Shown piece after piece: positions 13,701 to 48,955 of a stretch of 64,000 nt of DNA. Made by a program: the position numbers and the translations under genes. The notes beneath the pieces are model-generated. The model was not told where the DNA came from. It worked only from the letters and a program-made list of their open reading frames with translations, and searched no databases. The number at the start of each line of letters is the position of its first letter. The stretch's first letter is position 1. The stretch spans positions 1 to 64,000 of the IMG/VR virus record IMGVR_UViG_3300036851_000360, one strand, 5' to 3'. This DNA comes from a virus.

Positions 13701-14359
13701 TGCAGCAGATCACCACCGCCACCCAGCAGGGCATGCAGCAGGCCACTACTGCTGTCCAGCAGGGCATGCAGCAGATGGTGTCGGCGATCACGACCGGGAT
13801 GAACCAGGCCGTGTCCATTGTGCAGTCGGCGATCTCGAGGATGGTGTCCGCGCTCAACTCGGCCGTCGGCCAGTTCCGCGCCGCCGGCGCCAACATGGGT
13901 CAGGCCTTGGCCGATGGCCTCAACTCGAAGGCCGGGGCAGTCGAGGCGGCCGCCCGCCGACTCGCCAACGCCGCCGCAGCAGCGATGCGCGCGGCAGCGC
14001 AGATCCGCTCACCAAGCCGGATCAGCACCTACTTGGGCGAGATGTGGGGCGCGGGCTTCGTAGGCGGGCTCGACAACTCGGTCTCGGATGTTGAGCGGTC
14101 GGCCCGGGCTCTGGCCGACGCAGTCGTCGACGGTGTCTCCGGTGTGCAAGACGTCCTGGCGGGTGACGCGTGGGCGGCGGACTTCAACGCGAAGGTGAAC
14201 GCCCAGCTCGCCCAGCATGACACCACAGGCACGTCGGGCCAGACCGCGGGGAAGCAGATCGTCATCCAGACGACGATCAACAATCCGCAGGCTGAGCGGG
14301 GCAGCGACTCGATAGCACAGGTGCACCGGCGCCAGGCTGCGATGGGGATATTCGGATGA
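10730..14359 (+). CDS. Tape measure protein
   Basis: 1209 aa, Ala/Gly-rich; N-terminal GREVGRVSIRVLPD; C-terminal IRSPSR motif. Confidence 0.93.
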   Translation: MTSPGGREVGRVSIRVLPDTAGFRQRLQRALDAAESGLEVEIPVEFDVDPNELKAKLAAIQARVTVPVDLEPDIPKLRAQLAALDNSRITIPVELELRDTARLNAVLARLNNRAIRINVRLNGVSQAIARLTALDAIVRRLDGRNISINIDVDAGAAIAQIAAIEAALVGVRASLGSVGTSGSQSFSRMGSAITAAVAAALLLPPIAAAIAVAGAGITAAWGAISTAIVAIPPAILLLAGPIAAVIAGLDGIKAAAKTIKPEFDAMQKAVSATFEQRMIPIFERLTKTFPQLTNGMKGTAISLSDIALRLTEMVTSAEGLTRIDLVFANINRTLGDLSPGISALVDSFLILGSQASIFDVLSGTINTFAQSFRQMVIDVSGEGGVLDAAMRGLQGTLEGLARGFVDLVRNGLEVFAAAAPGVNALIEEMTGFFNRFDWTSLGASVGGVFQGLADAIAGVPTQTIRDIETAFADLSAVFQSTDFQADIQAMIGAIPEAIGLVRDLTAAFGDVGAGVATALEAYGRVKEAIGQVDEAIQTALPGFDLFGTIIRNIPGVNLGPLIGDLAAGYNEVTGTVEEGSTKAGDAAAKGMTDLGARAALEGERGMSQVPGATKAGLKGVAPAVTEGLTPAAQALVTAFSQMPPVVQEGFASLAPAAAAGMAVLSAAITDGGADMQASLSSSFGILATTATDGMTTISTAITGGAPQWSLAVGTAMQQVQLVFNTSFSQMATIAEQGMIGVQTAMTSGTAGWSLAIGLAMQAVMLVFTTSFSQFATIAEQGMIGVQTAMTTGTAGWSLAVGLAMQAVMLVLTTSFSQFGVIAEQGMIGVQTAMTAGTAGWSLAVGVAMQGVMLVLTTSFSQMATIATAGMLTVQTAITAGVALWATALATGMLQLHTVVSNGFLQMAAIATNGMALFAAAINIGFAGVIASVNAGMLLIVAAVTVGFAQIVAAVTAGMAQVAAALQLNWAAAIAATTAAMAQMTSAVQVGMQQITTATQQGMQQATTAVQQGMQQMVSAITTGMNQAVSIVQSAISRMVSALNSAVGQFRAAGANMGQALADGLNSKAGAVEAAARRLANAAAAAMRAAAQIRSPSRISTYLGEMWGAGFVGGLDNSVSDVERSARALADAVVDGVSGVQDVLAGDAWAADFNAKVNAQLAQHDTTGTSGQTAGKQIVIQTTINNPQAERGSDSIAQVHRRQAAMGIFG
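12851..13510 (+). repeat. 132-bp (44-aa) tandem repeats inside the tape measure gene
   Basis: WSLA-type units start at 12851, 12983, 13115 and 13247, with a degenerate fifth at 13379. Confidence 0.85.
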
Positions 14360-25055: not shown

Positions 25056-27230
25056 GTGCCGACTTCGTTCCCCACGTTCGTTGACACCCCGGAAGGGGAA
25101 GAGCCGGAGCCGGGCACCCCAGACGCCGACGCCGCCTACCTGAACAGCGTCAACGTCGCGATCAACACGCTCGAGAACACGCTGCCCGGCAAGGTCGACG
25201 CTGGCACTCTCGCCACGGTAGCCAGCTCCGGCGCCTACACCGACCTGATCGGTTCACCGTTCATCCCGACCGCGCCGAGCCACATCGGCGCGCAGCCGGC
25301 CGGCACCTACGTGGTGCCCGGCGATCTGGCGGCGTACGCCCCGGTCGCACACACCCACGCCGCGCCGAACAAGGTCCCCGTGGGCAGCATCAACGCCACC
25401 GGCACCCCCACTGCCTCGACGTTCCTGCGTGGTGACGGCACCTGGTCGCCGCCCCCACCGGACATCAGCGGCGGGATCAGCGGCGCGGTTGGCGACGGAG
25501 TCGTCGACGACACCGTCGCGATCAATGCTGCGCTCACGGCCGCCCGCACCGGTGGTGGCGGTCTGGTGAAAGGCGCCCCCGGCAGCACCTACCTGATCAA
25601 CGCGCCGTTGGTCATCGGGTCGAACACCGTGCTGGATATGACCGGCTGCCGGGTGGTGCTCGACCCGGCGGTGACCCAGTCCAACATGCTGAACAACCGT
25701 GCGGTCTCCACGTCGAACCGCACGGTCACCGACGGCGCGATCGCCGCCGCCGCGAACATCCTGGTGTCCGCTGCGGCCGCTTGGACGTCGGCCGACATCG
25801 GCCGCAGCGTGCACATCCCCGGCGCTGGCTGGGAGCTGCACGGCGGGGACGAGACCCCGGTCTGCGCCACGATCCTCTCAGTGTCGGGCACGGACGCCGA
25901 GCTGGACACCGTTGCCGGTACGACCGTTGTCGGCGCCACGGTGACCATCTACAACCGCGACGAGAACATCTTGGTGACCGGCGGTACCTGGGACGCGGGG
26001 GCCAACGAAGGCGGCGCCGACAACACCGGGCGACACATCCTGCGATTCCGCCGCATCGACGACCTGACGGTGCGGGACCTTCGGGTCGAGTGCACCGGCG
26101 GGAAGTACGCGATCACCCCCGGCGACTGCAACCGCGTGAAGATCACCGACTGCTCGTTCGACACCAGCTCCGACGGCATCCACTTCCACGGCCCGGCACG
26201 TGGCATCACGATCCGCGGGATCACCGGCGTCATGGGCGACGACTCGGTCGCGATCGGCACCGACGACATCCCGCAATATCAGGACGTCGCCGGGCCCATC
26301 AGCGAAGTGGTCATTGAAGACGTCGACTGCGTCACCGACATCAACATCGTGAAGATCTACACCCGGATCGGGATCGACCTGAACAACATCACGATCCGCA
26401 ACATCCGCGGGCGGAGCCTCGGCGAGTTCACCGGCATCACCCTTGTCGACGGGACCATGGACAACATCCTGGTCGACGGCGTGAACATCACCGGCCCGGC
26501 GGGCGGCATCTTCCGCTCGGTGATGCTGGCCTGCTCGAGCTCGAAGGCCACCGTCCGCAACGTCGTGTCTAGCGGCGGGTTCCTGTGCCAGGTCGTCACC
26601 GGGTTCACCGTCGACTCCCTGCTCGTGCAGGGCGCGGTGCACAGCTCACCCACCAGTGGCGATCACATGGTCGTCATCGATGGTTCCGTCGGCCACCTGT
26701 CGGTCTCCGACTTCTCCTGCACGCTCCCCGCCAGTGCGTCTCTCGTCCGCATGACCAACGGGGCCAGCATCGGCGCCGCCTACATCTCCGACGGTGTCCT
26801 CACCGGCGTCACCCACGGCTCGTTCCTCGACGCGCAGGTGTCATCCGGCACCCTCGGGCGGGCCGTGCTCCGCGGGCTCCGGGGCAGCAGCATTGCGTTT
26901 GGGTTCGCCACCAGCATCTCCGGGGAGGTGAACCTGTCGGACGTCGACCTGTCCGCAGCGATCGGACTGGTGTACGTGGCGGGCGGCAACCTAGTGATCC
27001 GCAACGGGCAGGGCATCACCGGAACGGCTACAGCCAGCTTCCGCGATGCCGGCACTCTCGCTGTCCGGGCCCCCGACTTCCCCATCGATCTCGACCTGGC
27101 CAACAGCCGATCCGCCGGCGACCGGGCCTTCAACGTCGACGCTGGCCTGTCCTGCGGTGTCGGCCCGGTGGTGTTCAACGGGACCGCCTGGGTGAACGTC
27201 GCCTCCGGCGCCACGTACACGCCGGCCTGA
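25056..27230 (+). CDS. Tailspike with pectin-lyase-like right-handed beta-helix
   Basis: Fibre-like N-terminus (LATVASSGAYTDL, FLRGDGTW); GAVGDGVVDDTVAINAAL; SDGIH...GDDSVAI (GH28-like). Confidence 0.78.
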   Translation: MPTSFPTFVDTPEGEEPEPGTPDADAAYLNSVNVAINTLENTLPGKVDAGTLATVASSGAYTDLIGSPFIPTAPSHIGAQPAGTYVVPGDLAAYAPVAHTHAAPNKVPVGSINATGTPTASTFLRGDGTWSPPPPDISGGISGAVGDGVVDDTVAINAALTAARTGGGGLVKGAPGSTYLINAPLVIGSNTVLDMTGCRVVLDPAVTQSNMLNNRAVSTSNRTVTDGAIAAAANILVSAAAAWTSADIGRSVHIPGAGWELHGGDETPVCATILSVSGTDAELDTVAGTTVVGATVTIYNRDENILVTGGTWDAGANEGGADNTGRHILRFRRIDDLTVRDLRVECTGGKYAITPGDCNRVKITDCSFDTSSDGIHFHGPARGITIRGITGVMGDDSVAIGTDDIPQYQDVAGPISEVVIEDVDCVTDINIVKIYTRIGIDLNNITIRNIRGRSLGEFTGITLVDGTMDNILVDGVNITGPAGGIFRSVMLACSSSKATVRNVVSSGGFLCQVVTGFTVDSLLVQGAVHSSPTSGDHMVVIDGSVGHLSVSDFSCTLPASASLVRMTNGASIGAAYISDGVLTGVTHGSFLDAQVSSGTLGRAVLRGLRGSSIAFGFATSISGEVNLSDVDLSAAIGLVYVAGGNLVIRNGQGITGTATASFRDAGTLAVRAPDFPIDLDLANSRSAGDRAFNVDAGLSCGVGPVVFNGTAWVNVASGATYTPA

Positions 27231-27255
27231 CGCACACGCAAGCAGGGGAGCCCCG

Positions 27256-27966
27256 ATGGCTATTCGGTTCGACGCAGCCGGAGATCGCGTCTACATCGCC
27301 ACCACGCTGCCAAACCCCGCAACGACGGGGTTGACGATCCTCGGGTGGTGGCGGGTACGGGTCGACCGCGACGACTACTCGGCCTACTACCGGACCTCCG
27401 CGGCCGGGACGTCGATCCACACCGTTGAAACCACCTCCACCGGGCTTGGGGTGAACATCTTCACCCCGTCCGGGGAGATCACCGACACCTACATCAACGC
27501 GGTCGACGAGTGGGTGGGGATCGCGGTCGTCGACAACGGGTCCGGCACGGTCACCCAGTACGTCCGCCCGGATGGGGGTGCGACCACGTCGAACAGCGGC
27601 GCGATCGCCTCCGGCACACCTGACCTGTTGTGTGTCGGCGGCCGGTCACAGTCCGACGCCACGGAGTGGTTCAACGGCGCTGCTACGCACGTCCGCGTGT
27701 TCGCCGACGCGCTCACCCAGGCCGAGATCGAGGACGAGTGGGCGTCGGCGAACCCGGTGCTGACAGCGTGGGCGGACTACCCGTTTCAGTCCGACATCCA
27801 GGACGCCTCAGGGAACGGCCGGCACCTCACCGCCGTGTCCGGCACGCCAGCGTTCGAACCGGGGCCGCTACCGGCCGACTCGACCACGGCGACCAGGTCG
27901 CGGGTTCTGACGCATGCCCGTCCACGTCTCGTCCGCGGTCGGACCCGCGCTGGCCGCAGACCATAG
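27256..27966 (+). CDS. LamG/concanavalin A-like tail protein
   Basis: WFNGAATHVRVFADALTQAEI and DASGNGRHLT motifs. Confidence 0.72.
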   Translation: MAIRFDAAGDRVYIATTLPNPATTGLTILGWWRVRVDRDDYSAYYRTSAAGTSIHTVETTSTGLGVNIFTPSGEITDTYINAVDEWVGIAVVDNGSGTVTQYVRPDGGATTSNSGAIASGTPDLLCVGGRSQSDATEWFNGAATHVRVFADALTQAEIEDEWASANPVLTAWADYPFQSDIQDASGNGRHLTAVSGTPAFEPGPLPADSTTATRSRVLTHARPRLVRGRTRAGRRP

Positions 27967-27991
27967 CAACCCCGATCGGAGGCCCGGCCGG

Positions 27992-28330
27992 GTGGACGCG
28001 GTCCTGACCACGCTCATCGGGGCAGCCCCACAACTCGGTGTCGGCGGCATCCTCCTCACCCTGCTGGCGTTGTTGATGCGCCGGGAGTCGCAGGACCGGG
28101 CTGACTACCGCACCCAGATCGCGGAGCTGTCGTCCCGGCACGCCGACGAGTTGAGGCGGATCAACGAGTCGCACGATGCGGAACTCGCCGAACTGCGTGT
28201 GGAGATCAAAGGTTTGCGGGTGCAGCTCGACGAGGTCAACCGGAAACTCGACGAGGAACGTGGCCTGAGGCGGGCAGCGGAGGACTCCATGCGACCCCGG
28301 CACCGGCGCACCCCAGGCGACACCCCATGA
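27992..28330 (+). CDS. Single-TM coiled-coil membrane protein (holin-like, lysis cassette)
   Basis: GGAGG RBS; [17 protein letters not shown] followed by a long charged coiled coil. Confidence 0.6.
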
Positions 28331-29022
28331 ACCGGGCCCGGCACCGGCTGCAACTGTGGACCCGGAACCGGATGGTGATGCTCGCCGTCGCCGCCACGGC
28401 GGTGCTGTTCATCGTCGCCGCGTCAGTGTGGGCCCAGCTCGGGCAGCAGGCCGCGCAGCAGCAGACCGGGGTAGTGGAACAGCAGCGCGACCAGGCGACC
28501 GAGCAACGAGACGACGCCGCCGCGCAGGCCGTGTCCCTCGCCGAGCAGATCAAGGCGGCGTGCGGGGACGGGTCCCTGTCAGGGGCAGTGTGTGAGCAGG
28601 CGGAGCAAGTCGCTGCAACACCCGTCCCTGGACCGGTTGGACCCCAAGGCGTCCCCGGGGCGTCTGGGCAACCCGGGACAGCCGGCGAGCCCGGCGCGGC
28701 TGGACCTGCTGGACCGACCGGGACGGCTGGCGACCCGGGGGCTACTGGCCCTGCCGGGCCCGCCGGCACGGATGGCCGGGATGGTGTGGACGGCGCGGAT
28801 GGTGTCGACGGGCAGGATGGCGAGCCTGGTCCAGCTGGCCCGGCAGGTCCACAAGGACCGACTGGCGAGCCTGGAGAGGACGGCCAGGACGGCGACGACG
28901 GGCCCCAAGGCCCACCCGGTGAGCCGCCAGCCTCCTACACGATGACCATCCTTGGGATCACGTACACGTGCACCCGCACCGGCGGGGACAACACCTCGCC
29001 CACATACACCTGCTCGACCTGA
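28327..29022 (+). CDS. Membrane protein with collagen-like G-X-Y repeats
   Basis: N-terminal TM; about 33 Gly-X-Y triplets; C-terminal YTC...YTC. Confidence 0.75.
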
Positions 29023-29067
29023 GCAGCTCTGATCCTTGCAGTTCAACGTCACCTTCTGGGAGACACC

Positions 29068-29766
29068 TTGAAGAAGATCGTCGTACCCGCTGCTGCCCTC
29101 GCGCTGTCTCTTATGACAGTTGGCGCGGGCCTGGCGCAGGCGGCGGAGCCGGCCAACTGCGCCGACGCCATAACCGCTCTCCAGCGCGCCGACTCGGACC
29201 ACCGCGCTGCTGTCGCCGCGGACGACAAGGCCGCCGCGGCGGAGAAGGCCGTCGACGACCTCGAGCGGGCAGAGGATCGGCTCGCGGACGCCGAGCGGGA
29301 TCTGGCGGCTGCGCGGGACACGCTCACGCGGGCCAAGGACCGTCTCGCCGATCTGAAGAAGCCCGGCGATGGCCCTGACGACAACACCACTCAGGAGCCG
29401 GGTGAGACCATCGGGAGCGAGCAGCAGATCGCCGACGCGCAGTCCGCTGTCGACGCCGCGGAGGACAAGGTCGATGACCTCACCGTCGTGCGCAACGACC
29501 GCCTGGAGGAGCGCAACGACGCTGTCGATCTGGAGAACGACGGCGACGCCGACGACCTGCAGGACGAGGCCGACAAGACCGACGCCGCCGCGCTGAAGAA
29601 GGCGGTCGACGAGGCGCGGGACGACTTCAACCGGATCTGCATCGACGAGGACGACCCCACCGACGACGTCACTACGACGCCCGCCACCCCGACGCCGGCG
29701 CCTGACGTGGACGTCACCGTCGTGACCCCCCGCGGGGGCGTGGCCACCGGCGGCGGTCCTGCGTGA
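29068..29766 (+). CDS. Secreted coiled-coil protein with class F sortase-type sorting motif
   Basis: Sec signal ending AQA-A; two Cys; Pro/Thr linker; C-terminal PRGGVATGGG; coupled to the sortase gene. Confidence 0.72.
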   Translation: MKKIVVPAAALALSLMTVGAGLAQAAEPANCADAITALQRADSDHRAAVAADDKAAAAEKAVDDLERAEDRLADAERDLAAARDTLTRAKDRLADLKKPGDGPDDNTTQEPGETIGSEQQIADAQSAVDAAEDKVDDLTVVRNDRLEERNDAVDLENDGDADDLQDEADKTDAAALKKAVDEARDDFNRICIDEDDPTDDVTTTPATPTPAPDVDVTVVTPRGGVATGGGPA

Positions 29767-30410
29767 CCCAACGCCTCCTGTTCAGCGCGGCCCTCGGCGC
29801 CATTCTGGCCGGGGCCGCGCTGGTCGCCTGCACGACCACGGCCCAGGTGGTGGAGGATCTGCCGTCGGGTGGTGCGGCTGCAAGCTCGGTGCAGGCACCT
29901 GAGTTCGTTGAGGTTGCGGAGCCGACGGCGATCCGGATCCCGAAGATCGGGGCCAGTTCGGAGCTCGACGAGCTCGGGTTGAACGCCGACGGGTCCCTGC
30001 AGGTGCCGCCCGTTACGGATCCGTTGACCGCTGGCTACTACGCCGGCGCAAAGCCGGATGAGTCCGGGGACGAGGTCTTGCCTGGCGAGCTGGGCGCGGC
30101 GGTGGTCGCGGCTCATGTCGACGGCGTGATCAACGGGAAGAAGGGCCAGCCCGGGTTGTTCTTCCGGCTGCACCAGCTTGAGCCCGGCGACGAGATCTTC
30201 ATCGATCAGGCCGATGGCGGTCAGCTGCGGTTCCTCGTCGACCGCGTCGAAACCCACAGCAAGGACCGCTTCCCCTCCGACGCAGTCTATGGACCGACTG
30301 AGCGGCCAGAGCTGCGGCTCGTGACCTGCGGCGGATCGTTCTCGAGGACGTCAGGACATTACCTCTCCAACGTCATCGCGTTCGCGACCCTGGCGCCCGA
30401 GCAGCAGTGA
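29763..30410 (+). CDS. Class F sortase
   Basis: IRIPKIG, LQVPP, VAAHVD (His), FFRLHQLEPGDEI, LRLVTCGG (Cys), YLSNVI; possible LVAC lipobox. Confidence 0.9.
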   Translation: MTQRLLFSAALGAILAGAALVACTTTAQVVEDLPSGGAAASSVQAPEFVEVAEPTAIRIPKIGASSELDELGLNADGSLQVPPVTDPLTAGYYAGAKPDESGDEVLPGELGAAVVAAHVDGVINGKKGQPGLFFRLHQLEPGDEIFIDQADGGQLRFLVDRVETHSKDRFPSDAVYGPTERPELRLVTCGGSFSRTSGHYLSNVIAFATLAPEQQ

Positions 30411-31108
30411 TCGGTCGGTGCGCGTCCTGTCTGCACCGCCGTTCCGAGCACGACTACCCCCGCCCCAACGCTGGCTGCAGCCGATGCCTCTGTCCGATGT
30501 GGTTTGCGCCGATCTGGCTGCTCGGGTGGCGGGCGCTCAACCAGTGGCTCGCCGAGAAGGTGTGGAGGATCCCACGTGACCAGCCCGCACATTCCCGGCC
30601 GAGCCCAGCTAGCGCGGTGCCAGACGGAGGCGGCGTTCTGGCGGAACTACGCCGCCCTCGCCCGGTTCGCCCGGCCGGATCATCTGCCACCGCTGCGGAA
30701 CCAGAACCGCCGTCGTCTGTGGCCTCGCCCGCCGTGGCATCGGGCGTCCACACCGGCGGCGATTCCGCAGCAGCGGGCAGTCCCGCAAGGTTTGCCGCCG
30801 CGGTCCCGGATCGGGTTGCCGAGACGGTGAAGCAGTTCTGGGCCTGGCTGTTCCTGCCGCGCCGGGTCCTGTCGGCGATGGAGCGCGACATCGCCCGCGT
30901 GCAGTGGGCGCAGACCGAGACTCTGACCAGGTTGAAGGAGTTGAAGACGATGACCGTTGTGGTTGCCAAGCCGGGTGATCGCGGAGCGGCTCTGGCGGAA
31001 CTGTGGCAGGTGCGGGATCTCCTCGCCGAGAGTGACCCGGACCTCGCAGCCCGCCTCCACGCTGTCTATAACGCGCTCGTGGTCGCCCACCCGGGCGACG
31101 CGGGCTGA
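30407..31108 (+). CDS. Hypothetical protein with N-terminal Cys/His cluster
   Basis: GTGA coupling to the sortase; CASCLH...H...CSRCLC. Confidence 0.45.
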   Translation: MIGRCASCLHRRSEHDYPRPNAGCSRCLCPMWFAPIWLLGWRALNQWLAEKVWRIPRDQPAHSRPSPASAVPDGGGVLAELRRPRPVRPAGSSATAAEPEPPSSVASPAVASGVHTGGDSAAAGSPARFAAAVPDRVAETVKQFWAWLFLPRRVLSAMERDIARVQWAQTETLTRLKELKTMTVVVAKPGDRGAALAELWQVRDLLAESDPDLAARLHAVYNALVVAHPGDAG

Positions 31109-31111
31109 CCG

Positions 31112-31151
31112 GTGCCCCGCCCTTCTGTGCTCCCCATGGAGGGCGGGGCAC
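31112..31151. terminator. Bidirectional terminator-like hairpin
   Basis: gtgccccgccct / agggcggggcac arms between convergent ORFs. Confidence 0.65.
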
Positions 31152-31160
31152 CACCCCCCG

Positions 31161-31466
31161 CTACTGCGCAACGGGGATCCGCGGGCGCCACTCGCCCAGC
31201 ATCCGCCGCCCGATCATCCGCTTGACGGAAACCCACTGGCGGCCGTCGACGGGGCAGGTCCACAGCGTGCCGGATCGCAGGTCTGCTGGGTCTCCTTCAG
31301 GCTGGCATGTATGTGCCTCAGTGGACGGAGCCGCATCCTCGACCTGCGCCGTCAACCACTCGTGGGCGTCCTCAAGCGACTCGAAGTCGTGTCGCTCGAC
31401 GTAGGTGTCCTTGTTGGTGTCGCGGTAGATCTCGATCGTCACTCGGTACTCGCGAGTCTGCTCCAC
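31161..31466 (-). CDS. Antisense hypothetical protein
   Basis: 101-aa ORF with globular composition ending at the shared hairpin. Confidence 0.55.
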   Translation of the reverse strand: MEQTREYRVTIEIYRDTNKDTYVERHDFESLEDAHEWLTAQVEDAAPSTEAHTCQPEGDPADLRSGTLWTCPVDGRQWVSVKRMIGRRMLGEWRPRIPVAQ

Positions 31467-31499
31467 ACGCAGTTCCTACCAGCTGGTCAAGGAGGATGG

Positions 31500-31739
31500 A
31501 TGGGCGACTGGTATCTCGGCAACGACAACCGCTGGCACTACGACAAGAACGCACCCAGCCCGGGCCAGCAGCCAGCGGTGACGATGATGCACCCCGTCGT
31601 CCATCCCACACCGCCCGCCGAGCCTGTCTTCGCCGGCGACGTCGGGGACTGGGTCGACCCCAACGCCCCCGACCCCACCCCCGACGAGATCGCCGACCCG
31701 GAACACTCCGACTACGTCGACCCCTGGTTCGGGCCGTGA
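31500..31739 (+). CDS. Small Pro/Asp-rich protein coupled to the endolysin
   Basis: AAGGAGG RBS; GTGA overlap with the endolysin start. Confidence 0.55.
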   Translation: MGDWYLGNDNRWHYDKNAPSPGQQPAVTMMHPVVHPTPPAEPVFAGDVGDWVDPNAPDPTPDEIADPEHSDYVDPWFGP

Positions 31740-32467
31740 CCCTGCTGCGGACGTACGAGCCCGCGAGGACCTGCACCGGCGGGCCCGAGCCGGGGGCGAA
31801 GGCGTTGATGGCGTGGTTTCTCGGCGCGTTCGGGTCGCAGGGCGGGAAGAACCTCGGCATCTACAACTGCCGGTCCGTCCGCGGTGGGTCCACCACGAGC
31901 TTGCACGGCGAGGGCCGGGCTTGCGACCTCGGTATCAACCCGCACGGCGCCCCCTACGGAACCCTCCTCGCCGAACGACTGCGGCTCAGCTCGGGCGAGC
32001 TCGGCATCCAGTGCCTCATCTGGAACCGGCGCATCTGGTCCGGCTCCTACCCCGATGCGGGCTGGAGGCACTACTCCGGCACCAACGCCCACGTTGAGCA
32101 TATTCACTTGGAGCTCTCAAGGGTGGCCGCGCGGAGCCTCACGCCAGCGCAGATTCAGCGAGTCCTGTCACCCGCCTCGCCCACCGCACGAGCGCCGTTG
32201 CCTCAGCCTGCGCCCCGCCCGCCAGTTCGGAAGGACGAACAGGTGTACATCAAGCACCAGCCCGACCCGACCAAGCCGGACATCTGGACCGCCCTGCTCG
32301 TGGGCCCGTTCTTCATCGGGCTGAACGCGAACGAGGCCCGTTCCGCAGACGGTGAGATCCAGCGGGGCGCGACCTGCCAGTGGGTGGAACGCGCGACGTG
32401 GGACGACCTGGACCGCCGCAGCATGGCCATCGCCCGCATTACCCCGAACACCCCCGGAGCGCAGTGA
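31736..32467 (+). CDS. Endolysin, M15-like Zn peptidase
   Basis: GIYNCRSVRGG..SLHGEGRACD...HVEHIHLE zinc-binding motifs; precedes the holin. Confidence 0.82.
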   Translation: MTLLRTYEPARTCTGGPEPGAKALMAWFLGAFGSQGGKNLGIYNCRSVRGGSTTSLHGEGRACDLGINPHGAPYGTLLAERLRLSSGELGIQCLIWNRRIWSGSYPDAGWRHYSGTNAHVEHIHLELSRVAARSLTPAQIQRVLSPASPTARAPLPQPAPRPPVRKDEQVYIKHQPDPTKPDIWTALLVGPFFIGLNANEARSADGEIQRGATCQWVERATWDDLDRRSMAIARITPNTPGAQ

Positions 32468-32520
32468 TCATGGGGGAGCACAGCCTGGTCAACGACCGGG
32501 ACGACACAACCGGAGGAACC

Positions 32521-32859
32521 GTGAATGTGCTTGGACGCGAGCCCGCGCAGTGGATCGGACTCCTGTCCGCCGCTGTCGCCCTGTTCTCTTCGCTCATCTT
32601 CCCGCTCGACGTCGGGCAGCAGGGCGCCGTGATCGCCGTCGCCACTGCCGGGTTCGGAATTGCGGGCGCGTTGGCGGTGTCGGCGGAGAAGGCTGCGCCG
32701 TTGGTCGCTGGCCTGGTGCAGTCGGTGATCGCCTTGGCGCTTGCCTTCGGGTTGCAGCTTCCCCCGGAGGTCCAGGGATCGATCATGGCGTTCGTTGCCG
32801 CAGGAGTGGCGTTCTACCTTCGCACTCAGGTCACCGCACCAGTACCCGCAGACGCCTAA
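32521..32859 (+). CDS. Holin (multi-TM)
   Basis: GGAGGA RBS; LGREPA start; four hydrophobic segments; RTQVTAPV end. Confidence 0.8.
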   Translation: MNVLGREPAQWIGLLSAAVALFSSLIFPLDVGQQGAVIAVATAGFGIAGALAVSAEKAAPLVAGLVQSVIALALAFGLQLPPEVQGSIMAFVAAGVAFYLRTQVTAPVPADA

Positions 32860-32905
32860 CCCCCCGAGCTCGCCCGGCGGGATCCCCGTCACGCCGGGCA
32901 GACGG

Positions 32906-32943
32906 AGAGCGGCCCCTTGCCTACGTGGGCAGGGGGCCGCTCT
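32906..32943. terminator. Terminator at the end of the late operon
   Basis: agagcggcccc-tgcc / ggca-ggggccgctct hairpin between convergent genes. Confidence 0.8.
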
Positions 32944-32959
32944 TTCGTGCGTTCAGAGG

Positions 32960-33370
32960 TCAGCGGTGGCGCCGTTCCAGGACTTCGCGTGCACGAGCGT
33001 GGTCCGCTGTGGTCAGCGGTGTTGGCGCGGCGACCGCTGCGTGGATGCGCTCGTACCAGCCGTCCAGGATCAGACCGACCGGCACCTCTTCCCAGTCGAT
33101 CGGGCCGACCAAGCGGGTCAGGCCCGCGATGCGGGACACCACGTTCTCGCAGTTGATCGACCAGTTGCCGTTCAAGGCGTGCTGCCGAGCGTCTCGCAAG
33201 TCGGACCAGGCCAACTTGAGCAGCCAACGGAGCGCCGAGTCGGGCGTGGCGTACTCCTCGTCCACCTGGCTAGCCGCCTCGTCGATGTACTCCAGCGGGT
33301 CGCGTTCCCGCCACCGTTCCCTGAGGTCGGCTGCGGTCAGCTCCACGTACTCGGTCACGGTGCTCCTCAC
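32960..33370 (-). CDS. Hypothetical protein
   Basis: Coupled minus-strand operon, 136 aa. Confidence 0.6.
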   Translation of the reverse strand: MRSTVTEYVELTAADLRERWRERDPLEYIDEAASQVDEEYATPDSALRWLLKLAWSDLRDARQHALNGNWSINCENVVSRIAGLTRLVGPIDWEEVPVGLILDGWYERIHAAVAAPTPLTTADHARAREVLERRHR

Positions 33371-33639
33371 CAGTCGAAGTACTCGTCGTAGTCGCCTTCA
33401 CCGGCTGTCGGCGATTTCCCCTCGAACGACCGGACGTGACCGGGCCAGTAGTAGGGCGCTGCCGCGGTGCGCTCACCGTTCGGGCTGAGGATGTCCCGCA
33501 GCTCGACGCACCACTCGACCGGGATCACCTCGTCGTGCAGATCCTGCCCGAGGTGCTCGGACAGCAGCCATTGGATGTCGTCGGGCTGCAGCATGCCAAG
33601 ATCGGCGGCGAGATCAGGAGCGGTCATACCCTCAGCCAT
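33367..33639 (-). CDS. Hypothetical protein
   Basis: Coupled minus-strand operon; GGGAG RBS. Confidence 0.55.
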   Translation of the reverse strand: MAEGMTAPDLAADLGMLQPDDIQWLLSEHLGQDLHDEVIPVEWCVELRDILSPNGERTAAAPYYWPGHVRSFEGKSPTAGEGDYDEYFDW

Positions 33640-35250: not shown

Positions 35251-35579
35251 CGCCTCACTCGTGCGGCACCAGCGTCTTCGGCGGGTGCAGGTGTCCACTC
35301 CGCCGGCCGCTGCTCCGGGATCCGCGGCAACCCCGGGAAGTCGCCTTCCCGCGATCTGGCCCACTCGTCCCGGTCCCCGTACGGCGGGTACCGCACCTTC
35401 TGCAGCTCCGTGTACTCGCCGGGCAGTTCGTGGGTGCGGTGGTACTGGCCGCCGGCGTAGTCGTCGTAGGACTGCATCCGGTCCGAGCGGAGCTCGAGTG
35501 CCAACCGGGCGGCGACGACGAGTTCATGGTCGTGGGGGAGCTGCGACAGCTTCAGCCCCAGGTCTGCGGCGTCACTCAT
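35247..35579 (-). CDS. Hypothetical protein coupled to the relaxase
   Basis: ATGA overlap with the relaxase stop. Confidence 0.6.
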   Translation of the reverse strand: MSDAADLGLKLSQLPHDHELVVAARLALELRSDRMQSYDDYAGGQYHRTHELPGEYTELQKVRYPPYGDRDEWARSREGDFPGLPRIPEQRPAEWTPAPAEDAGAARVRR

Positions 35580-38500
35580 GCCCGTTCCCTCACTCGTGCC
35601 TGCTCGTCTGCCATCTCGGGTGCGGCCAGCCACCGGGTTTGCCGTTCGGCCTCTTCCTCCGCCGCCCGCATCTCGTCGGCGCGGTCACGGTCGGTGCGCT
35701 CAAGGAGGGACTCGCGGGCTCGTCTCACCGAGTCCGCCACCGCATCCGCTGCCGGCACTTCCCGCCGGATGCGTGGGTCGTGTTCCGTCGGATCCGCGAT
35801 CGCAACGTCGCGGATGTCCGCCACAGCTGTCTCGAGGGGCTTCCGCGGCACGGGCAGTTCATGGACGTGCTCGCCGACGAGATCTTCCTCGTGGATCGGG
35901 CGGCGTTCATCGTCGGCGACCCGGTCGGCTTCCTCCGCCGCCAACCACTCCGCCATCGTGGTCCGATCCTCTGGGCGGGCCAGGTCAACTTCGCGGCGCG
36001 CCAACTCCGCCTTGGCACGCTCACCCGAATCACGGGTGCCGGCGGTGTGGAGGAACCACGCGGTCCGCTCCTTGTCTGCGACCTCAAGGTTGAGCTTCAA
36101 CTGTTCGAGCTGTGCCGCTTCCTGTTCAGCCTTGACTGCCGCCTCGAGGACCCCCCGCTTCTCGTCGCCTTCGAGGGTTTCGGCGTGCGCCCGCCACAAC
36201 CCGACCTGGTTTCGACGGTCCGCCAACTGCTCGGAGGTGGCCGCGAGTTCGTCCGCGACATAGCGGGGGGCCCACAGCTGTTCCCGTTCCCATGCCGCGG
36301 CCCGGGCGAGAAGCTGCCCGTCGGACTGCATCGCCTCCTCCGGCCCGACATCCGGCAGGCCGAGAGCGTCGTGGGCGGTCGCCCAGATCGCGCGCTTCTC
36401 CGCCAGCCCTGCGGCGGGGGCAGGGCCGAGCGGGTCATGCTCGTCCGTGTACTCGGCGCCCTCCCGGGACGCGGCTGCCCAACCGGCGCGGGACTCCCAC
36501 ACCGCCCGCCGTAGCGGATCCTCCGGGACCGGCCCCAGTGTCTCCATCGCCCAGGGTGGACGTTCCTCCGCCACCCTTGCGCCGAGCTCGTGACGCCGCT
36601 CATCAGCCTTGTCGGCTTGTTTCTCAAGCCAACCGCGCCACACGTCGCTCACCCCGGCGGGGATGAGGTCCCGGTAGGAGGTGATCCGCGGGATCTGTTT
36701 CCCGAGGGTGTTGCGGATGCGGGCGTGCAGCACCTGCGCTGCTCTCTCAGCGCCAGCCAGGGACTTCCCTTCCAGCGCGTCGCGGAGCACGCCCTCGGGG
36801 TTGTGGCCAGAAACCTCCGCGTTGCGGAGGAGTCGCTCCACAGCGCTCATCGCCTGGTCCGCGGCCAGCGCCTCACGTTGTTCAGGGGTGATGACGCCTT
36901 CCGCGGCGAGCCGATCCAGGCGGGTTGAGGTCGCGCCGGCGGTGGCCTCGTTGATCCCAACGAGTAGCCGGTCGACGTTGCGGAAGGTGGACTGCTCGTC
37001 CTCGATGGCCTGCTCGCGCTGGGCGATCGCCCCCCGTTCCTCCTCGGCGTTCTTGAATGAGTCCGCGAGGACAGCCTTTGCGGTGCGACCCTCGACCTCC
37101 TGCGCTTCCCCGACGGGCGCGTCGGAGGCCAGCTGCTTGGTGGTGACCCACGCTGTGTTCGACTCCCGGCCGCGTGTCATCCCCACGTAGGTGCCGGTGA
37201 GGTCGTGCCCGGTGTCGACGGTGCGGCCCTGTGCGGCGTGCAGGGTGGAGGCGTAGGCGAGGGACAGGTGCTTCTCGACGTAGCTGGCGCTCAGAGTTAG
37301 CGCGACCCCCTTGCTGGTCTCCACCCGCAGTGCCCCGTCGGCGAGGAAATGAGTCACCCGGTACGTCTGCCGGTTGATCAACGGGAGAGGGTTACGGCCG
37401 AGGCGCCAACTGTTCTTTCGTGCCTGCACAAGGTCGCCGATCCCGGCGATGTTGCCGTCTTTGCCGAGACGTACACCGCGTTCGGACACCTTCCCCAACC
37501 GGACGAGCTCGGCCCGGAGCTGGGCGTTCACCTGGGCGGCCTGGTCGTTGCTGCGGACCAACAGCAGGGACTTTTTCCCTGCGAGGGTGTCCGCCAGCCA
37601 CGCCTGCCCTGCCTTGTGCTCGGCCTGTTCGGTTGTGCCGCAGCCACGCAACCGGCCGTGCTTGTCGTACTCGTCGAGGGCTGCGACATTCCCTTCACGC
37701 CACAGCAGCGACGCCGTGCGTTCCCACTCCTCCTGGAACCGCCACACCTGCGTCAGCTCGTAGGACCGTGCCGTGCGACGGAGATCAGCGAACACCCCAC
37801 CGGCCTCGACTGAACGCATCTGCCGTGCGTCGCCGACTGGCAGGAGTTTCGCCCCAACCTCCTCGCACCGCTGCACCAGATCGGCCATGTCCCGGGTGGA
37901 TGCCATCCCCGCCTCGTCCACCACGACCAGGTCACCGGCTCGCAGTTGTAGGGAGTCGTCGTTCTCGACCGCGAGGCGCCACCGGTCGAAGTTGAACGAC
38001 TCCACCCCCTCTTCAGCCATGACGTCGGCGGCGTTCTGCGAGGCGGCCAGCCCGAACGTGCGGCGGCCATGTTCGGCCCACGCGCCCGCGATCAGCCCGA
38101 CAGTTGTCGACTTGCCAGTACCGGCGGCAGCGGAGATGGTTTCCACGTAGGCGCCGGAGGTGAGGACGCCGCAGATCGCGGCCTCCTTGTCCGCCCCCAA
38201 CGTCTCGTCCGCCGCCTCGTTGTAGCGGCGGATGAACGCATCCACCTGCGCCTGGCTCAGCTTCGCCGCCCCAGTCCTGACAGCTGCCTGCTCAGCGATC
38301 CGCTCCTCGGCGATCTGCCCGACTGTGGCGAACTGGGCGGAACCGGGACGCTGGAACGCGGACAGATCACCGGCCAACCGGAACTCGGCTGGCAGGCCGT
38401 CAACCGACTCTTTGGCGACAACGACCTTGGCTTCGGCGAGGGCCTTGTCGGCGAGCCGCTCCAACATCGCGGGGATGTCACCGGCGGGGACACCGAGGTT

Positions 38501-39799
38501 CGCGGGGAGCGCACCCGAGATCGCGAAGATCAGATCGGAGCGGGTCCACACGTGCTCGTTTTTCCCGACTTCCCACAACGCCGCCTTGATCACCTGAGAG
38601 GGGGAGACTTCATCCGCCCGCCCTTGCCCCTTCAGCGCGAGGACGTCGTGGGCGACCTGCTCCAACCCGCCCACCATCTTCGTGCGGGCCTCACGCTCCC
38701 ACCGGTCCAACCGCTGTTCCGCGGTCTCCCCGGTGTGCGACTTCCCCTTCCTCGTCAACAGGGTGGCGCGTTCGGCGATGTACTGCCGCTCCAACGGCGA
38801 CACGGACCGGCCGTGCTGCTCCTCGTACTCGCGGATCAACTGCTCCGTCTTCGCGGTGACCGCGTGGGACCGCTTCGAAAACAGGTCCATGAGCTGCTGC
38901 GGCACACCCGCGATCTCGCGGATGATCCCGTCCTTGCGGGCGTCGCGGGTCACAAACCGGACCCCCAACGTGCGGGCGAGCTCGGCCTCCATGACCCGCT
39001 CACCCACCGCGGCGGCAGCCCACTTGTGCAGCGTCAACGCCGCCCCGTCGACCCGGCCCCACTTCCCATCAGCGCGTTCGTGAACGTTCAGGATCGCCTG
39101 GTGCACATGCAGCTGTGGATCCCGCTCCCGGGAGTCGTGCTGCAGGAACTGGGCGACGATGAACCCCTTCTGCTCCATCCAGCGACCCGCACCGGAGGAG
39201 TGGTTCCCAACCCGGGCGTACGCGTTCGCCTCGAGGTAGTCGACACTTGCCGACGCGCCAGCCATCGCTGCGCCCTCAACCGCGCTGAGCATGGCCCGCC
39301 ACGATGCCGCCTCCTGATGACGTCCTGCACCAGCGGCGACGTTCATCGCCCGCTCGAAGGCGACCGCCAGGAGGGTCACGGACTTCGGGACCGAGAAGGT
39401 GGCATCCCAGAACGCCACCGCCTGCCGCGACTCCCGCTCCGCCGCAGCCTGAAGTTCGGCTCGCCGCTCCGGGCCCGCATCGGGCTCCTTCGCGAGCGCC
39501 TCTTTGTAAATCTCGTCCGGTGACCGGTAGCGGCGGTGGGCGGGAGCCAACGCCCGCGCCTCCGCCCACATCTCCCGGTGATGGGTGGCCTCGTCGCGAG
39601 GGTCGAGCAGACGGGCGTAGATCGCCTCCATCAGATCGGAGTTGACCTCGCCCGCCAGCCCGAGAGCCTGGGCGCCCCGCCCATGCCAGCCGCCGGGCGG
39701 TTCACCCGCGGCTACGGCACCCGTGTAGTAGCCCTCCCGCCCGGTCGACACCGGTCCGGTCAGGTACCCCACCGAGTAGCCCTTGGTCACCTTGAACAC
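35576..39799 (-). CDS. mobF: MobF (TrwC-family) conjugative relaxase with RecD-like SF1 helicase
   Basis: GYYTG tyrosines, GGWHGRGAQALGL, DATFSVPKSV, HDSRERDPQLHVH (HUH); helicase motifs AAAGTGKS, VVDEAGM, YASTLHAAQGRTVD. Confidence 0.95.
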   Translation of the reverse strand: MFKVTKGYSVGYLTGPVSTGREGYYTGAVAAGEPPGGWHGRGAQALGLAGEVNSDLMEAIYARLLDPRDEATHHREMWAEARALAPAHRRYRSPDEIYKEALAKEPDAGPERRAELQAAAERESRQAVAFWDATFSVPKSVTLLAVAFERAMNVAAGAGRHQEAASWRAMLSAVEGAAMAGASASVDYLEANAYARVGNHSSGAGRWMEQKGFIVAQFLQHDSRERDPQLHVHQAILNVHERADGKWGRVDGAALTLHKWAAAAVGERVMEAELARTLGVRFVTRDARKDGIIREIAGVPQQLMDLFSKRSHAVTAKTEQLIREYEEQHGRSVSPLERQYIAERATLLTRKGKSHTGETAEQRLDRWEREARTKMVGGLEQVAHDVLALKGQGRADEVSPSQVIKAALWEVGKNEHVWTRSDLIFAISGALPANLGVPAGDIPAMLERLADKALAEAKVVVAKESVDGLPAEFRLAGDLSAFQRPGSAQFATVGQIAEERIAEQAAVRTGAAKLSQAQVDAFIRRYNEAADETLGADKEAAICGVLTSGAYVETISAAAGTGKSTTVGLIAGAWAEHGRRTFGLAASQNAADVMAEEGVESFNFDRWRLAVENDDSLQLRAGDLVVVDEAGMASTRDMADLVQRCEEVGAKLLPVGDARQMRSVEAGGVFADLRRTARSYELTQVWRFQEEWERTASLLWREGNVAALDEYDKHGRLRGCGTTEQAEHKAGQAWLADTLAGKKSLLLVRSNDQAAQVNAQLRAELVRLGKVSERGVRLGKDGNIAGIGDLVQARKNSWRLGRNPLPLINRQTYRVTHFLADGALRVETSKGVALTLSASYVEKHLSLAYASTLHAAQGRTVDTGHDLTGTYVGMTRGRESNTAWVTTKQLASDAPVGEAQEVEGRTAKAVLADSFKNAEEERGAIAQREQAIEDEQSTFRNVDRLLVGINEATAGATSTRLDRLAAEGVITPEQREALAADQAMSAVERLLRNAEVSGHNPEGVLRDALEGKSLAGAERAAQVLHARIRNTLGKQIPRITSYRDLIPAGVSDVWRGWLEKQADKADERRHELGARVAEERPPWAMETLGPVPEDPLRRAVWESRAGWAAASREGAEYTDEHDPLGPAPAAGLAEKRAIWATAHDALGLPDVGPEEAMQSDGQLLARAAAWEREQLWAPRYVADELAATSEQLADRRNQVGLWRAHAETLEGDEKRGVLEAAVKAEQEAAQLEQLKLNLEVADKERTAWFLHTAGTRDSGERAKAELARREVDLARPEDRTTMAEWLAAEEADRVADDERRPIHEEDLVGEHVHELPVPRKPLETAVADIRDVAIADPTEHDPRIRREVPAADAVADSVRRARESLLERTDRDRADEMRAAEEEAERQTRWLAAPEMADEQARVRERA

Positions 39800-47467: not shown

Positions 47468-48955
47468 GTGTCCGACTCGTACAGGCCGAGGCCGCGCGCA
47501 GGGCAGTACCTGCGCGTCAGCCTGGACCGCTCCGGCCGTGCCCGGTCCGTCGACGAACAGCAAGTTGACAACGAGCGGGCCGCCGGCGAGCACGGATGGG
47601 AGATCGTCGCCAACTACGCCGACCCCAACCGGTCCGCAAGCCGATACGCAACGAAGCTGCGGGAGAACTACCTGCGCCTGCTCGAGGACATCCGCAAGCG
47701 CGAGCTTGACGTCCTGATCATTTGGGAGCCGTCGCGCGGATCCCGCAAGGTGTCGGAGTGGGTGGAGCTCATCGAGGTCGCCGAGACAGCGGCGGTCAAG
47801 TTCCACGTCACGTCCCACGGACGTACCTACGACCCTGCGAGGCCACGTGACCGGCGCTCTCTCCTCGAGGATGCTGTCGACTCTGAGTATGAGTCGGGGA
47901 AGAACTCGGAGAGGGTGAAACGCTCGACCGCTGCCTCGGCCGAGGCAGGCCGCCCGTTCGGGTCGATCCCCTTTGGGTACCGGCGGGAGTACGAGGCTGG
48001 GTCGACCAGCCCGACCGCACAGGTCCCCGACCCTGAGACAGCCCCTGTCGTCCAGGAGATTGTCGCCCGCATCCTGGCGGGCGACCCGCTGCACCGGATC
48101 GCGATGGATTTGAACCGACGGGGTGTGTTGACACCGCAGATGGTCCGCGACCGCCGTCTCGGGCGTGAGGGTGTGCGCCGGGGTGGCTGGAACAACCCGA
48201 AGATTCGGAAGTTGTTGTCGTCGCCGACGATGGCGGGGTGGCGGGTTCATCAGGGCGAGGTGTTCGGCCCGGCGATGTGGAAGCCGCTCGTCGCTCCGGC
48301 GGACCACGCGGCCGCGCTGGCGATCATCAACGATCCGAGCCGGCGGACGCAGCGGGGGACGGAGCCGAAGTTCCTGCTGTCGGGGATCGCGGAGTGTGGG
48401 GTGTGCGGCGGCTGGTTGCGCCGCTTTCCCAACCGTGGGCACCAGTCGTACGGCTGCGCGGGACGGAACAACCAGAACGACGGACATGTGGTGCGCCGCG
48501 CGGAGCATCTCGACGCGATGGTGGTGAAACGTGTCGTGGAGCGTCTGCGGGACCCGGGCCTGGCGGAGGGGCTGGCGCGGCGGAGAGCAGCGGCGGATGA
48601 GTCCGCTGCGGAGGCGGCGCGGGAGCTGGCGGCTCTGCACAGGCAGCTCGCCGACTACGAGGTGAAGGCGCAGCAGGGCGGCGTGTTGGCGGCCTCGTTC
48701 GAGCGGGTCGCGCTGGGAATCGCTCAGCAGATCGAGGCCGCGCGGGCGCGTCTGGTGACGTCGGCGGTTGTCCCAGCGGGCGTACTGGATTTGGCCGGCC
48801 CGGATGCCGCCGTACGGTGGGCGGCCATCCAGGACGACATTGTGAAGCAGCGTCTCATTGTGCGTTCGCTCGTGCAGGTGATTGTGCATCGGTCGAATGC
48901 GCCGCGTGGGTCGCGGGTGTTTGACGAGTCGTCGGTCGAGATCGTGGATCGTTAG
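47468..48955 (+). CDS. int: Large serine integrase
   Basis: YLRVS catalytic Ser; SAS..R, SRGSR; recombinase domain; Zn ribbon LLSGIAECGVCG...YGC; coiled coil. Confidence 0.95.
   Translation: MSDSYRPRPRAGQYLRVSLDRSGRARSVDEQQVDNERAAGEHGWEIVANYADPNRSASRYATKLRENYLRLLEDIRKRELDVLIIWEPSRGSRKVSEWVELIEVAETAAVKFHVTSHGRTYDPARPRDRRSLLEDAVDSEYESGKNSERVKRSTAASAEAGRPFGSIPFGYRREYEAGSTSPTAQVPDPETAPVVQEIVARILAGDPLHRIAMDLNRRGVLTPQMVRDRRLGREGVRRGGWNNPKIRKLLSSPTMAGWRVHQGEVFGPAMWKPLVAPADHAAALAIINDPSRRTQRGTEPKFLLSGIAECGVCGGWLRRFPNRGHQSYGCAGRNNQNDGHVVRRAEHLDAMVVKRVVERLRDPGLAEGLARRRAAADESAAEAARELAALHRQLADYEVKAQQGGVLAASFERVALGIAQQIEAARARLVTSAVVPAGVLDLAGPDAAVRWAAIQDDIVKQRLIVRSLVQVIVHRSNAPRGSRVFDESSVEIVDR

Follow-up and report, generated by a model that had tools for sequence, protein, structure and literature searches.

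We analyzed a window of 64,000 nucleotides, the first 64 kb of the IMG/VR virus record IMGVR_UViG_3300036851_000360 (72,180 bp, estimated to be 93% complete), and found that it encodes a sortase and, immediately upstream, a predicted secreted protein that ends in a conserved C-terminal tag and lacks the membrane anchor of canonical sortase substrates. The sortase, of class F type, is a predicted lipoprotein. Probably (we put the probability at roughly 0.6), the two genes form a self-contained, phage-borne cassette, of a type made up of a lipoprotein sortase and an anchor-less substrate, that decorates the envelope of the host. The genes themselves, their phage setting, the sortase fold, the conserved His and Cys residues, the conservation of the tag and its pairing with class F sortases were all confirmed.

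The presumed substrate, hereafter called the partner, is encoded on the plus strand at positions 29068..29766 (TTG start, 232 aa) and the class F-type sortase on the same strand at 29763..30410 (GTG start, 215 aa). Their G+C contents at third codon positions (GC3), 0.87 and 0.84, respectively, are typical for coding frames in the window. The two genes are translationally coupled through a 4-nt overlap (29763..29766, plus strand), in which the letters GTGA hold both the GTG start of the sortase and the TGA stop of the partner. A preliminary description of this DNA had reported an intact class F sortase with the strings AHVD, LVTCGG, and YLSN and a possible lipobox, coupled to a secreted protein with two cysteines that ends in PRGGVATGGGPA directly before its stop codon. 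These statements held up: the strings lie at residues 117-120, 186-191, and 200-203, the lipobox is LVAC at residues 20-23, and the overlap, the open reading frames (ORFs), and the end of the partner were as described. The suggestion that the N-terminus of the sortase, read in the overlapping frame, supplies the hydrophobic stretch missing from the substrate found no support. None of the 120 sortase homologues listed is fused to a partner or carries the tag before its catalytic domain, the partner homologues all stop at the tag, and overlap is the usual gene junction in this family (22 of 34 loci with anchor-less partners, median gap -4 nt), so there is no space for a hidden segment that could encode a transmembrane (TM) helix. 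We therefore reject both a frameshift and a partner-sortase fusion.

The downstream product is recognizable as a sortase by family, phylogeny, and predicted fold. It matched Pfam PF04203 over residues 104-210 with 60.1 bits (cut-off 26.6; 59.9 bits in the genome search) and the NCBIfam class F profile NF033748 over profile positions 5-154 of 155 (158.5 bits, E 9.3e-47), while none of the other NCBIfam sortase classes gave a match. Among 464 homologues, all the named ones that give a class are called 'class F sortase', and on a phylogenetic tree the window sortase sits among chromosomal class F sortases. An AlphaFold2 (AF2) model reached a predicted local distance difference test score (pLDDT) of 80.2, with most of the β-barrel above 90. 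The Protein Data Bank (PDB) matches listed by Foldseek were all sortases, of classes A, C, D, and E (E ~1e-8, template-modelling scores of 0.5-0.69, 15-23% identity).

Within the catalytic domain (residues 54-212; 29922..30398, plus strand), His118 (in AHVD; 30114-30116), Cys189 (in LVTC; 30327-30329), Tyr200 (30360-30362), and Asn203 (30369-30371) are invariant in an alignment of 18 sequences, and the pattern TC...Y..N recurs in 112 of the 120 homologues listed. When a pair of class E sortases from two of the genomes that hold class F loci was included with MAFFT, Asn203 (SNVIA) aligned with their β8 Arg (QRLIV). A profile of the 18-sequence alignment found no PDB sequence at E <= 0.01, only fragments of the His region at E 0.35, and the Arg/Asn equivalence therefore rests on the MAFFT alignment rather than on structure superposition. 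As judged from these alignments, the class F-type group appears to use a His-Cys-Asn active site. At the N-terminus, we read a lipoprotein signal peptide (29763..29831, plus strand) whose lipobox, L20-V21-A22-C23, follows a hydrophobic core. LVAC meets the pattern [LVI][ASTVI][GAS]C and is kept in close homologues, and a lipobox-like string occurs in 74 of the 120 listed; lipidation itself is a prediction only. A low-confidence linker of ~30 residues follows the lipobox in the model.

The partner begins with a predicted Sec signal peptide (residues 1-25, MKKIVVPAAALALSLMTVGAGLAQA, followed by AEP; 29068..29142, plus strand), whose hydrophobic core and AQA-type cleavage site, between AQA and AE, are kept in an alignment of partner homologues. 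The mature protein has a pI of 4.05, 9 Lys residues, and two cysteines, Cys31 and Cys191, which bound a helical region (residues 31-191; 29158..29640, plus strand). In the AF2 model of the partner (pLDDT 78.7), helices 31-97, 118-156, 161-169, and 173-191 have pLDDT values above 90. The first of these spans 67 residues and is followed by a turn and by helices that return to residue 191; we read the modelled helices as an antiparallel hairpin that would bring Cys31 near Cys191, and we presume that the two form a disulfide staple. Cys191 is invariant and Cys31 nearly invariant in the partner alignment. Residues 192-232 are disordered in the model. They start with an Asp/Thr/Pro-rich linker (residues 192-217; 29641..29718, plus strand; pLDDT ~40-68), in which TTTP is invariant. 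Scans against Pfam and NCBIfam matched the partner to no family and found no pilin-like domain or pilin motif in it, the best score in an ESM Atlas search was 0.78, under the counting level, and a pattern scan of 185,579 species genomes found no chromosomal relative of the coiled-coil partner.

The sorting motif VVTPRGGVATGGGPA occupies residues 218-232 (29719..29763, plus strand), and the stop codon follows directly (29764-29766). The tag peptide reads ...DVTVVTPRGGVATGGGPA, with the core PRGGVATGGG at residues 221-230, so that the protein stops 2 residues past TGGG. Across 15 partner homologues (40-79% identity), the helical body diverges while V218, P221, G223, G224, T227, G228, G230, and P231 are invariant, and all 15 terminate 0-4 residues beyond the motif. 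From this conservation, the C-terminal string is more than chance and is best classed as a predicted sorting tag. The scissile bond, placed by analogy with the cleavage of LPXTG between Thr and Gly, is presumed to be Thr227-Gly228. Only one ORF of the window carries the tag at its C-terminus, and the phage sortase therefore has a single, presumed private substrate. Near the ends of credible ORFs in the window we found neither LPXTG nor LAXTG; the partner itself has VATG, without a TM helix or tail.

To place the pair in its family, we examined it together with viral and chromosomal relatives. The viral set comprised the window and 19 loci (L003-L021) recovered by an alignment-based scan; scans of viral contigs with single proteins gave none. 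For the chromosomal set, one genome per species was searched, 597 of 600 matched stretches were confirmed, and the best 80 loci were examined. With the tag written as P-x-G-G/A-V/A/P-x-T-G-x-G, this regular expression found it within the last 70 residues of a same-strand ORF near the sortase at 67 of the 80 chromosomal loci, and in the ORF upstream of the sortase at 14 of the 20 viral loci. The search for class F sortase and motif pairs in phages that the preliminary description had called for turned up 19 viral loci, where the ORF directly upstream of the sortase is secreted, with a variable body and an end of the form V-P-x-G-x-x-x-T-G-(G/D)-G. Chromosomal partners often continue from the tag through a spacer and a hydrophobic helix to an Arg-rich tail, the classical three-part signal with another motif. 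In phages and chromosomes alike, the tag pairs exclusively with class F sortases. The N-terminal domains of the partners vary (DUF4397, Excalibur, DUF4331, choice-of-anchor P, or none) and the tag remains constant; it therefore behaves as a sorting signal. All partner starts shown open with a hydrophobic, signal-like segment, but the choice of start maximized that property.

A partner profile searched against 1.84 billion representatives gave 1,319 matches at E <= 0.001, many of them through the Excalibur domain of some members. Among the 150 matches listed, 54 end shortly past the tag, 12 run into a TM tail, one was scored as 'other', and 83 are without the tag; of 30 near-full-length rows chosen by eye from these 150, 29 stop directly past it. 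The tag signal is already modelled by the NCBIfam family NF058571 'GVDTG_CTERM', which scored 3 of 18 scanned partners above its cut-off and 2 below. Its matches in the TM-bearing partners of loci L087, L101, and L051 reached 30.5-35 bits (cut-off 29). The window partner gave no match to NF058571 at E <= 0.01, as expected of a protein without the TM helix and basic tail that account for most of the model's 44 positions. We found no paper that defines the GVDTG tag, or class F substrates by it.

We then classified the partners by what follows the tag, applying the one regular expression and one hydropathy rule to the ORF ending just upstream of the sortase. The 80 chromosomal loci fell into 40 with a TM tail, 19 whose partner ends 0-16 residues past the tag, and 21 unclassified, the last including incomplete loci, variant motifs, and partners encoded elsewhere. 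The 20 viral loci gave 14 short partners, one with a TM tail (L018), and five unclassified by the regular expression. Three of these five (L012, L017, and L019) are short by eye, and two (L015 and L020) have a tail of ~22 residues that is neither hydrophobic nor absent. Short partners thus account for 17 of 18 viral and 19 of 59 chromosomal loci (raw Fisher p = 3e-6, or 2e-5 with calls of the regular expression only; relatedness ignored). The layout noted at the outset for this phage, a partner without TM helix or basic tail after the motif, is conserved among its homologues and viral relatives. It had also been held that the idea would fail if substrates without a TM helix were standard at chromosomal loci, and this proved partly true: with 19 short against 40 TM-bearing partners among the 59 classifiable of the 80 loci, the anchor-less form is common there, and it is enriched in phages (17/18). 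Since 19 of the 59 classifiable chromosomal loci have anchor-less partners, the missing anchor is a family trait that is enriched in phages, not one unique to them.

The anchor of the sortase co-varies with that of the partner. Anchor-less partners occur with a lipobox sortase at 31 of 34 loci, the other three having a non-lipobox sortase with a signal-anchor helix, and TM-bearing partners at 4 of 41, the remaining 37 being non-lipobox (n = 75, raw Fisher p = 2e-13; two obvious false positives of the regular expression were fixed by hand). Mapped onto a maximum-likelihood tree of the 100 catalytic domains, the state of the partner (short or TM) requires 8 changes. The viral/chromosomal label also requires 8 (6-8 on bootstrap trees), and at least 3 of these changes are forced by well-supported branches; the cassette recurs in several actinophage lineages, in most cases placed between the tail and the lysis genes. 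The rows nearest to the window sortase are viral (L003 and L004), and a clade of all seven viral rows formed by the window and L003-L008 was supported by neither tree, nor was it rejected by an approximately unbiased test (p-AU 0.43).

Some loci depart from the two main layouts. At L015 (4896-5414) and L020 (5102-5587), the partners are Gly/Tyr-rich secreted proteins with the tag VPVGA(V/A)(S/A)AGDGS, in which Ala stands for Thr, followed by ~22 non-hydrophobic basic residues, and a long N-terminal extension containing a TM helix precedes the sortase domain at both loci. Six Amycolatopsis loci (L023, L063, L070, L074, L078, and L080) encode both an anchor-less partner, with the tag VPSGAAKAGDGSMA and again Ala for Thr, and a TM-bearing partner (VPSGAPQTGG, a TM helix, and then RRR), both upstream of just one sortase, which is TM-anchored. 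The number of tagged ORFs at L023 is five.

The window belongs to a tailed temperate phage. Our PHROG scan identified the large terminase (407-2158), the portal (2925-4490), a head protease, the major capsid protein (6482-7696), the tape measure protein (10730-14359), a stretch of genes for tail, tailspike, and collagen-like fibre proteins that ends at 29022, a serine integrase (47468-48955), and a primase-polymerase (58678-61416). The matches for terminase, portal, protease, capsid, tape measure, holin, serine integrase, and primase had E values of 1e-21 to 1e-170, and genes for packaging, head, tail, lysis, and integration all lie on one contig. The relatives of the large terminase that were found are all from actinobacteriophages at <60% identity (best 52.9%, a Microbacterium phage), and a megablast search of positions 28000-33000 against a phage collection gave zero matches. 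From the gene set, the terminase relatives, and the 68% GC of the window, it is an uncultured temperate, siphovirus-like phage of a member of the Actinomycetota, its hosts being soil bacteria of high GC content, and it is without a cultured close relative. No tRNA genes were found in the window, and the host is therefore placed only as Actinomycetota.

The features of the pair suggest how it could work, and from them we infer the export of the partner, its disulfide, the cleavage site, the acceptor, the timing, and the biological purpose. The partner would be exported by Sec and lose its signal peptide to yield an acidic helical hairpin ~10 nm long, stapled by Cys31-Cys191, with the tag at the end of a trailing, disordered Thr/Pro linker. 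Lipidated at Cys23 and extended by the flexible linker behind it, the sortase would sit tethered on the outside of the host membrane. It would then bind the tag, and Cys189 would attack to form a thioacyl intermediate, with His118 assisting and Asn203 standing in for the Arg; cleavage is most probable after Thr227. An amine of the envelope would accept the stalk protein, the most plausible candidate being a peptidoglycan precursor or cross-bridge. A coat of phage-specified protein would in this way form on cells that are infected or lysogenic, a surface decoration that may serve, for example, receptor masking or exclusion; the preliminary description had proposed these two and, as a third purpose, cell contact for transfer. 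The long conserved tag (~13 residues, compared with 5 in LPXTG) and translational coupling would replace retention in the membrane by a TM helix and basic tail.

Several points weigh against such a decorating cassette. The NF033748 score of the sortase lies 7.5 bits under the curated 166-bit cut-off, a shortfall that we infer to stem from two extra segments (~residues 97-104 and 122-126); in the 18-sequence alignment, 8 or 9 members, mainly the named chromosomal ones, lack each segment; judged by its sequence relatives, the sortase is thus filed as class F-type by phylogeny rather than by the curated threshold. No Arg is invariant after Cys189 in the 18-sequence alignment and the canonical β8 Arg is missing, a feature that all of the NF033748-type group shares and that is not a defect of the phage copy. 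An independent-pairs test of the link between lipobox sortases and anchor-less partners had 2 usable pairs on well-supported branches, so that shared descent could explain it. In the literature, we found no biochemical test of this type of class F sortase or of the GVDTG tag, and a quadruple srtF deletion in Actinoplanes missouriensis is reported to have no phenotype (PMC13251363). The accepted view, as stated in a further source (PMC10924467), is that the C-terminal helix of a substrate in the membrane is a prerequisite for wall attachment; the anchor-less partner might therefore just be secreted.

The last of these points bears also on the alternative that the tag is processed and the product is not anchored to the wall. 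The partner could be ligated to another protein, by self-polymerization via Lys or a new N-terminus or onto a host surface protein, could persist as a long-lived acyl-enzyme on the lipid-anchored sortase, or could merely be trimmed of its C-terminal GGGPA. The absence of a TM helix and basic retention signal from the partner, the accepted rule that wall anchoring needs membrane insertion (PMC10924467), the Asn in place of the catalytic Arg, and the 9 Lys residues of the mature partner are all consistent with this, and the adjacent anchor-less and TM-bearing partners of the six Amycolatopsis loci recall a tip-and-base arrangement. On the other hand, the TM-bearing relatives of the tag have the full classical wall-sorting layout, and wall attachment is therefore the default chemistry of the family; moreover, the partner shows no pilin-like domain or motif. 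We regard a product off the wall as rather unlikely.

The position of the pair raises a different alternative, a late-expressed accessory of lysis in which a wall-tethered coiled coil and a transpeptidase prepare or coordinate the breakdown of the envelope or consume wall precursors. In the window, the pair lies between tail and lysis genes: downstream of it are a putative lysin (31736-32467, plus strand; phrog_32486, E 1.2e-5), whose start was set at GTG 31736, where a lysin-like ORF of L002 has a similar N-terminal sequence, and a holin (within 32380-32859, plus strand; phrog_9752, E 1.9e-21). The order is the same in the second phage, the one most like the window (L002/L003, 69 kb), where we read from the ORFs a tailspike, small membrane proteins, a collagen-like fibre, the partner, the sortase, and a lysin-like gene similar to that of the window. 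Six viral loci have a PHROG-labelled endolysin within ~2 kb downstream of the sortase (L004, L008, L009, L011, L013, and L015), two have a phrog_32486 gene like the putative lysin of the window downstream (L006 and L007), and tail genes lie upstream of the pair in L006, L007, L013, L015, and L020. The partner also gave a weak match to Rz-like spanin families, which pair a membrane-anchored i-spanin with a lipoprotein o-spanin in hosts with an outer membrane; the partner itself has a cleavable signal peptide in place of an anchor.

Against a role in lysis, that match, to phrog_1403 only and confined to the coiled coil (E 4.1e-4, 21 bits), is at coiled-coil noise level. In L010 (3949-8119), the genes flanking the pair are those for the large terminase and the portal, and in L016 it lies beside the terminase, a minus-strand gene (31161-31466) parts the module from the lysin in the window, and like cassettes occur at the 597 confirmed chromosomal stretches, where lysis genes were not searched for. 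In addition, the junction between tail and lysis genes commonly hosts accessory cargo. We therefore consider a lysis accessory quite improbable. At L014, L018, and L019, the single neighbour tested had no PHROG match; these are long contigs that may not be phages. A tblastn search with the sortase against 50,697 INPHARED phage records gave zero matches, and the sortase matched no PHROG family and no BFVD structure at E <= 0.001. Very improbable, finally, is a passenger from a host chromosome that has lost the TM tail of its sorting signal and has no phage function: chromosomal homologues are abundant and the sortase scores slightly below the family cut-off, but the tag and stop position are kept in the 15 homologues, 17/18 viral loci, and 29/30 family representatives, His118 and Cys189 are intact, the nearest tree rows are viral, and the coiled-coil partner is without a chromosomal relative in the 185,579 species genomes scanned.

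The proteins encoded across 27914-31108 all carry export or membrane signals. Upstream of the pair, 27914-28330 (plus strand) encodes a 138-aa product that combines a TM segment with a coiled coil. It is followed at the end of the tail module by a gene of collagen-like tail-fibre type (28327..29022, plus strand; Pfam Collagen E 1e-16; PHROG tail-fibre families, best phrog_6320 E 4.5e-26), whose start overlaps the preceding stop by 4 nt and whose product has a hydrophobic N-terminal segment. Downstream, a 233-aa ORF (30407..31108, plus strand) opens with a GTG start that overlaps the sortase stop (GTGA). It has 4 homologues (2 of them on contigs that equal in length contigs with sortase relatives), patchy GC3, a Cys-rich N-terminus (CxxC...CxxC) with a hydrophobic stretch, and no family in Pfam and PHROG scans. 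Small ORFs that read as helical also lie between sortase and lysin at L002 (7066-7461), L006 (6792-7286), L007 (6909-7307), and L013 (6530-6934), those of L002, L006, and L007 sharing an LP..RG.L...W.Y...QTE.IT.I-like start; by eye, the C-terminal third of the 233-aa ORF resembles them. The minus-strand gene at 31161-31466, between the sortase block and the lysis genes, encodes 101 aa with GC3 0.82 and good coding statistics, and matched no family in the Pfam and PHROG scans. Scanning of 27000-33500 for promoters and terminators gave 0 promoter-like and 1 terminator-like hit, at or below the shuffle expectation. Elsewhere in the window, 35576-39799 (minus strand) encodes a 1,407-aa protein, large for a phage of this size, with Dda-like helicase and exonuclease V-type PHROG matches (E 2e-20 and 6e-17).

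The closest known counterparts are the chromosomal loci of Actinomycetota that pair a class F sortase (NF033748) with a GVDTG protein (NF058571). They share the sortase family, the tag core P-x-G-G-V-x-T-G-x-G, and a partner gene immediately upstream that often overlaps the sortase gene. In contrast to the typical chromosomal locus, the phage partner stops at the tag, the sortase is a predicted lipoprotein rather than TM-anchored and has two extra segments, and the pair is phage-borne. Also close are anchor-less chromosomal cassettes, for example those of Amycolatopsis (L037, L044, and L047) and of Pseudonocardiaceae loci (L022, L024, L053, and L077), which also have a lipoprotein sortase, a partner that ends 0-12 residues past the tag, and commonly the -4 nt overlap. 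They differ in their cargo (Ser/Thr-rich, choice-of-anchor P, or Excalibur) and come from bacterial genome records; our literature search found nothing on such cassettes.

Among published phage sortases, we found only SrtB, encoded with canonical substrates in 24 huge gut phages (bioRxiv 10.64898/2026.10.24.761521). As in the window, a presumed substrate lies immediately upstream, and display on the host wall was proposed. Those enzymes are described as class B, of Bacillota origin, with His-Cys-Arg kept, in genomes >200 kb from animal guts (bioRxiv 10.64898/2026.10.24.761521), whereas the window has a class F-type enzyme and an anchor-less partner in a ~72-kb temperate actinophage. Class E sortases, which recognize LAXTG (Streptomyces SrtE1/SrtE2 and Thermobifida SrtE), have the same fold (Foldseek E ~3e-8 to 9j0t and 5cuw), and the A/V-x-T-G core of the phage tag resembles their motif; they differ in their low identity (15-18%), a catalytic Arg that is kept, and substrates with TM helices and basic tails. 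The only characterized class F enzyme, SrtF of Propionibacterium (Cutibacterium) acnes (Di Girolamo 2019), shares the class letter with the phage enzyme; its reported motif is LPXTG, as in class A (cited in PMC8225981 and PMC13251363).

Class F sortases are common across the Actinomycetota, and the genomes of the streptomycetes and Actinoplanes treated in the literature each hold several copies. Their physiological role is described as unknown (PMC13251363). The same report describes neighbours of srtF1 and srtF4 with signal-peptide, TM, and basic features but, according to its authors, 'no pentapeptide motif' (PMC13251363). Against this background, the class F/GVDTG cassette is known but uncharacterized, and the phage-borne lipoprotein sortase with an anchor-less substrate is a new form of it. 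We tentatively propose, as a wider idea that is possible but doubtful, that two co-evolved class F architectures exist, one of a TM enzyme with a TM substrate and the other, so far undescribed, of a lipid-tethered His-Cys-Asn enzyme with a soluble substrate bearing a ~13-residue tag, and that actinophages repeatedly recruited only the second, beside lysis genes, for covalent modification of the host wall. If so, receptors could be capped on lysing cells or in lysogens, to name one example, and the phage pair would be a minimal natural system that overturns the rule of substrate membrane insertion for sortases.

With one sortase and one tagged protein, the phage offers the cleanest pair with which to establish what the tag is, where it is cleaved, and which acceptor is used, and possibly a sortase/tag pair for protein ligation orthogonal to LPXTG. 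The anchor-less layout and its link with lipoprotein sortases challenge the textbook three-part sorting signal, and the accessory functions of phages would gain the covalent remodelling of the Gram-positive envelope.

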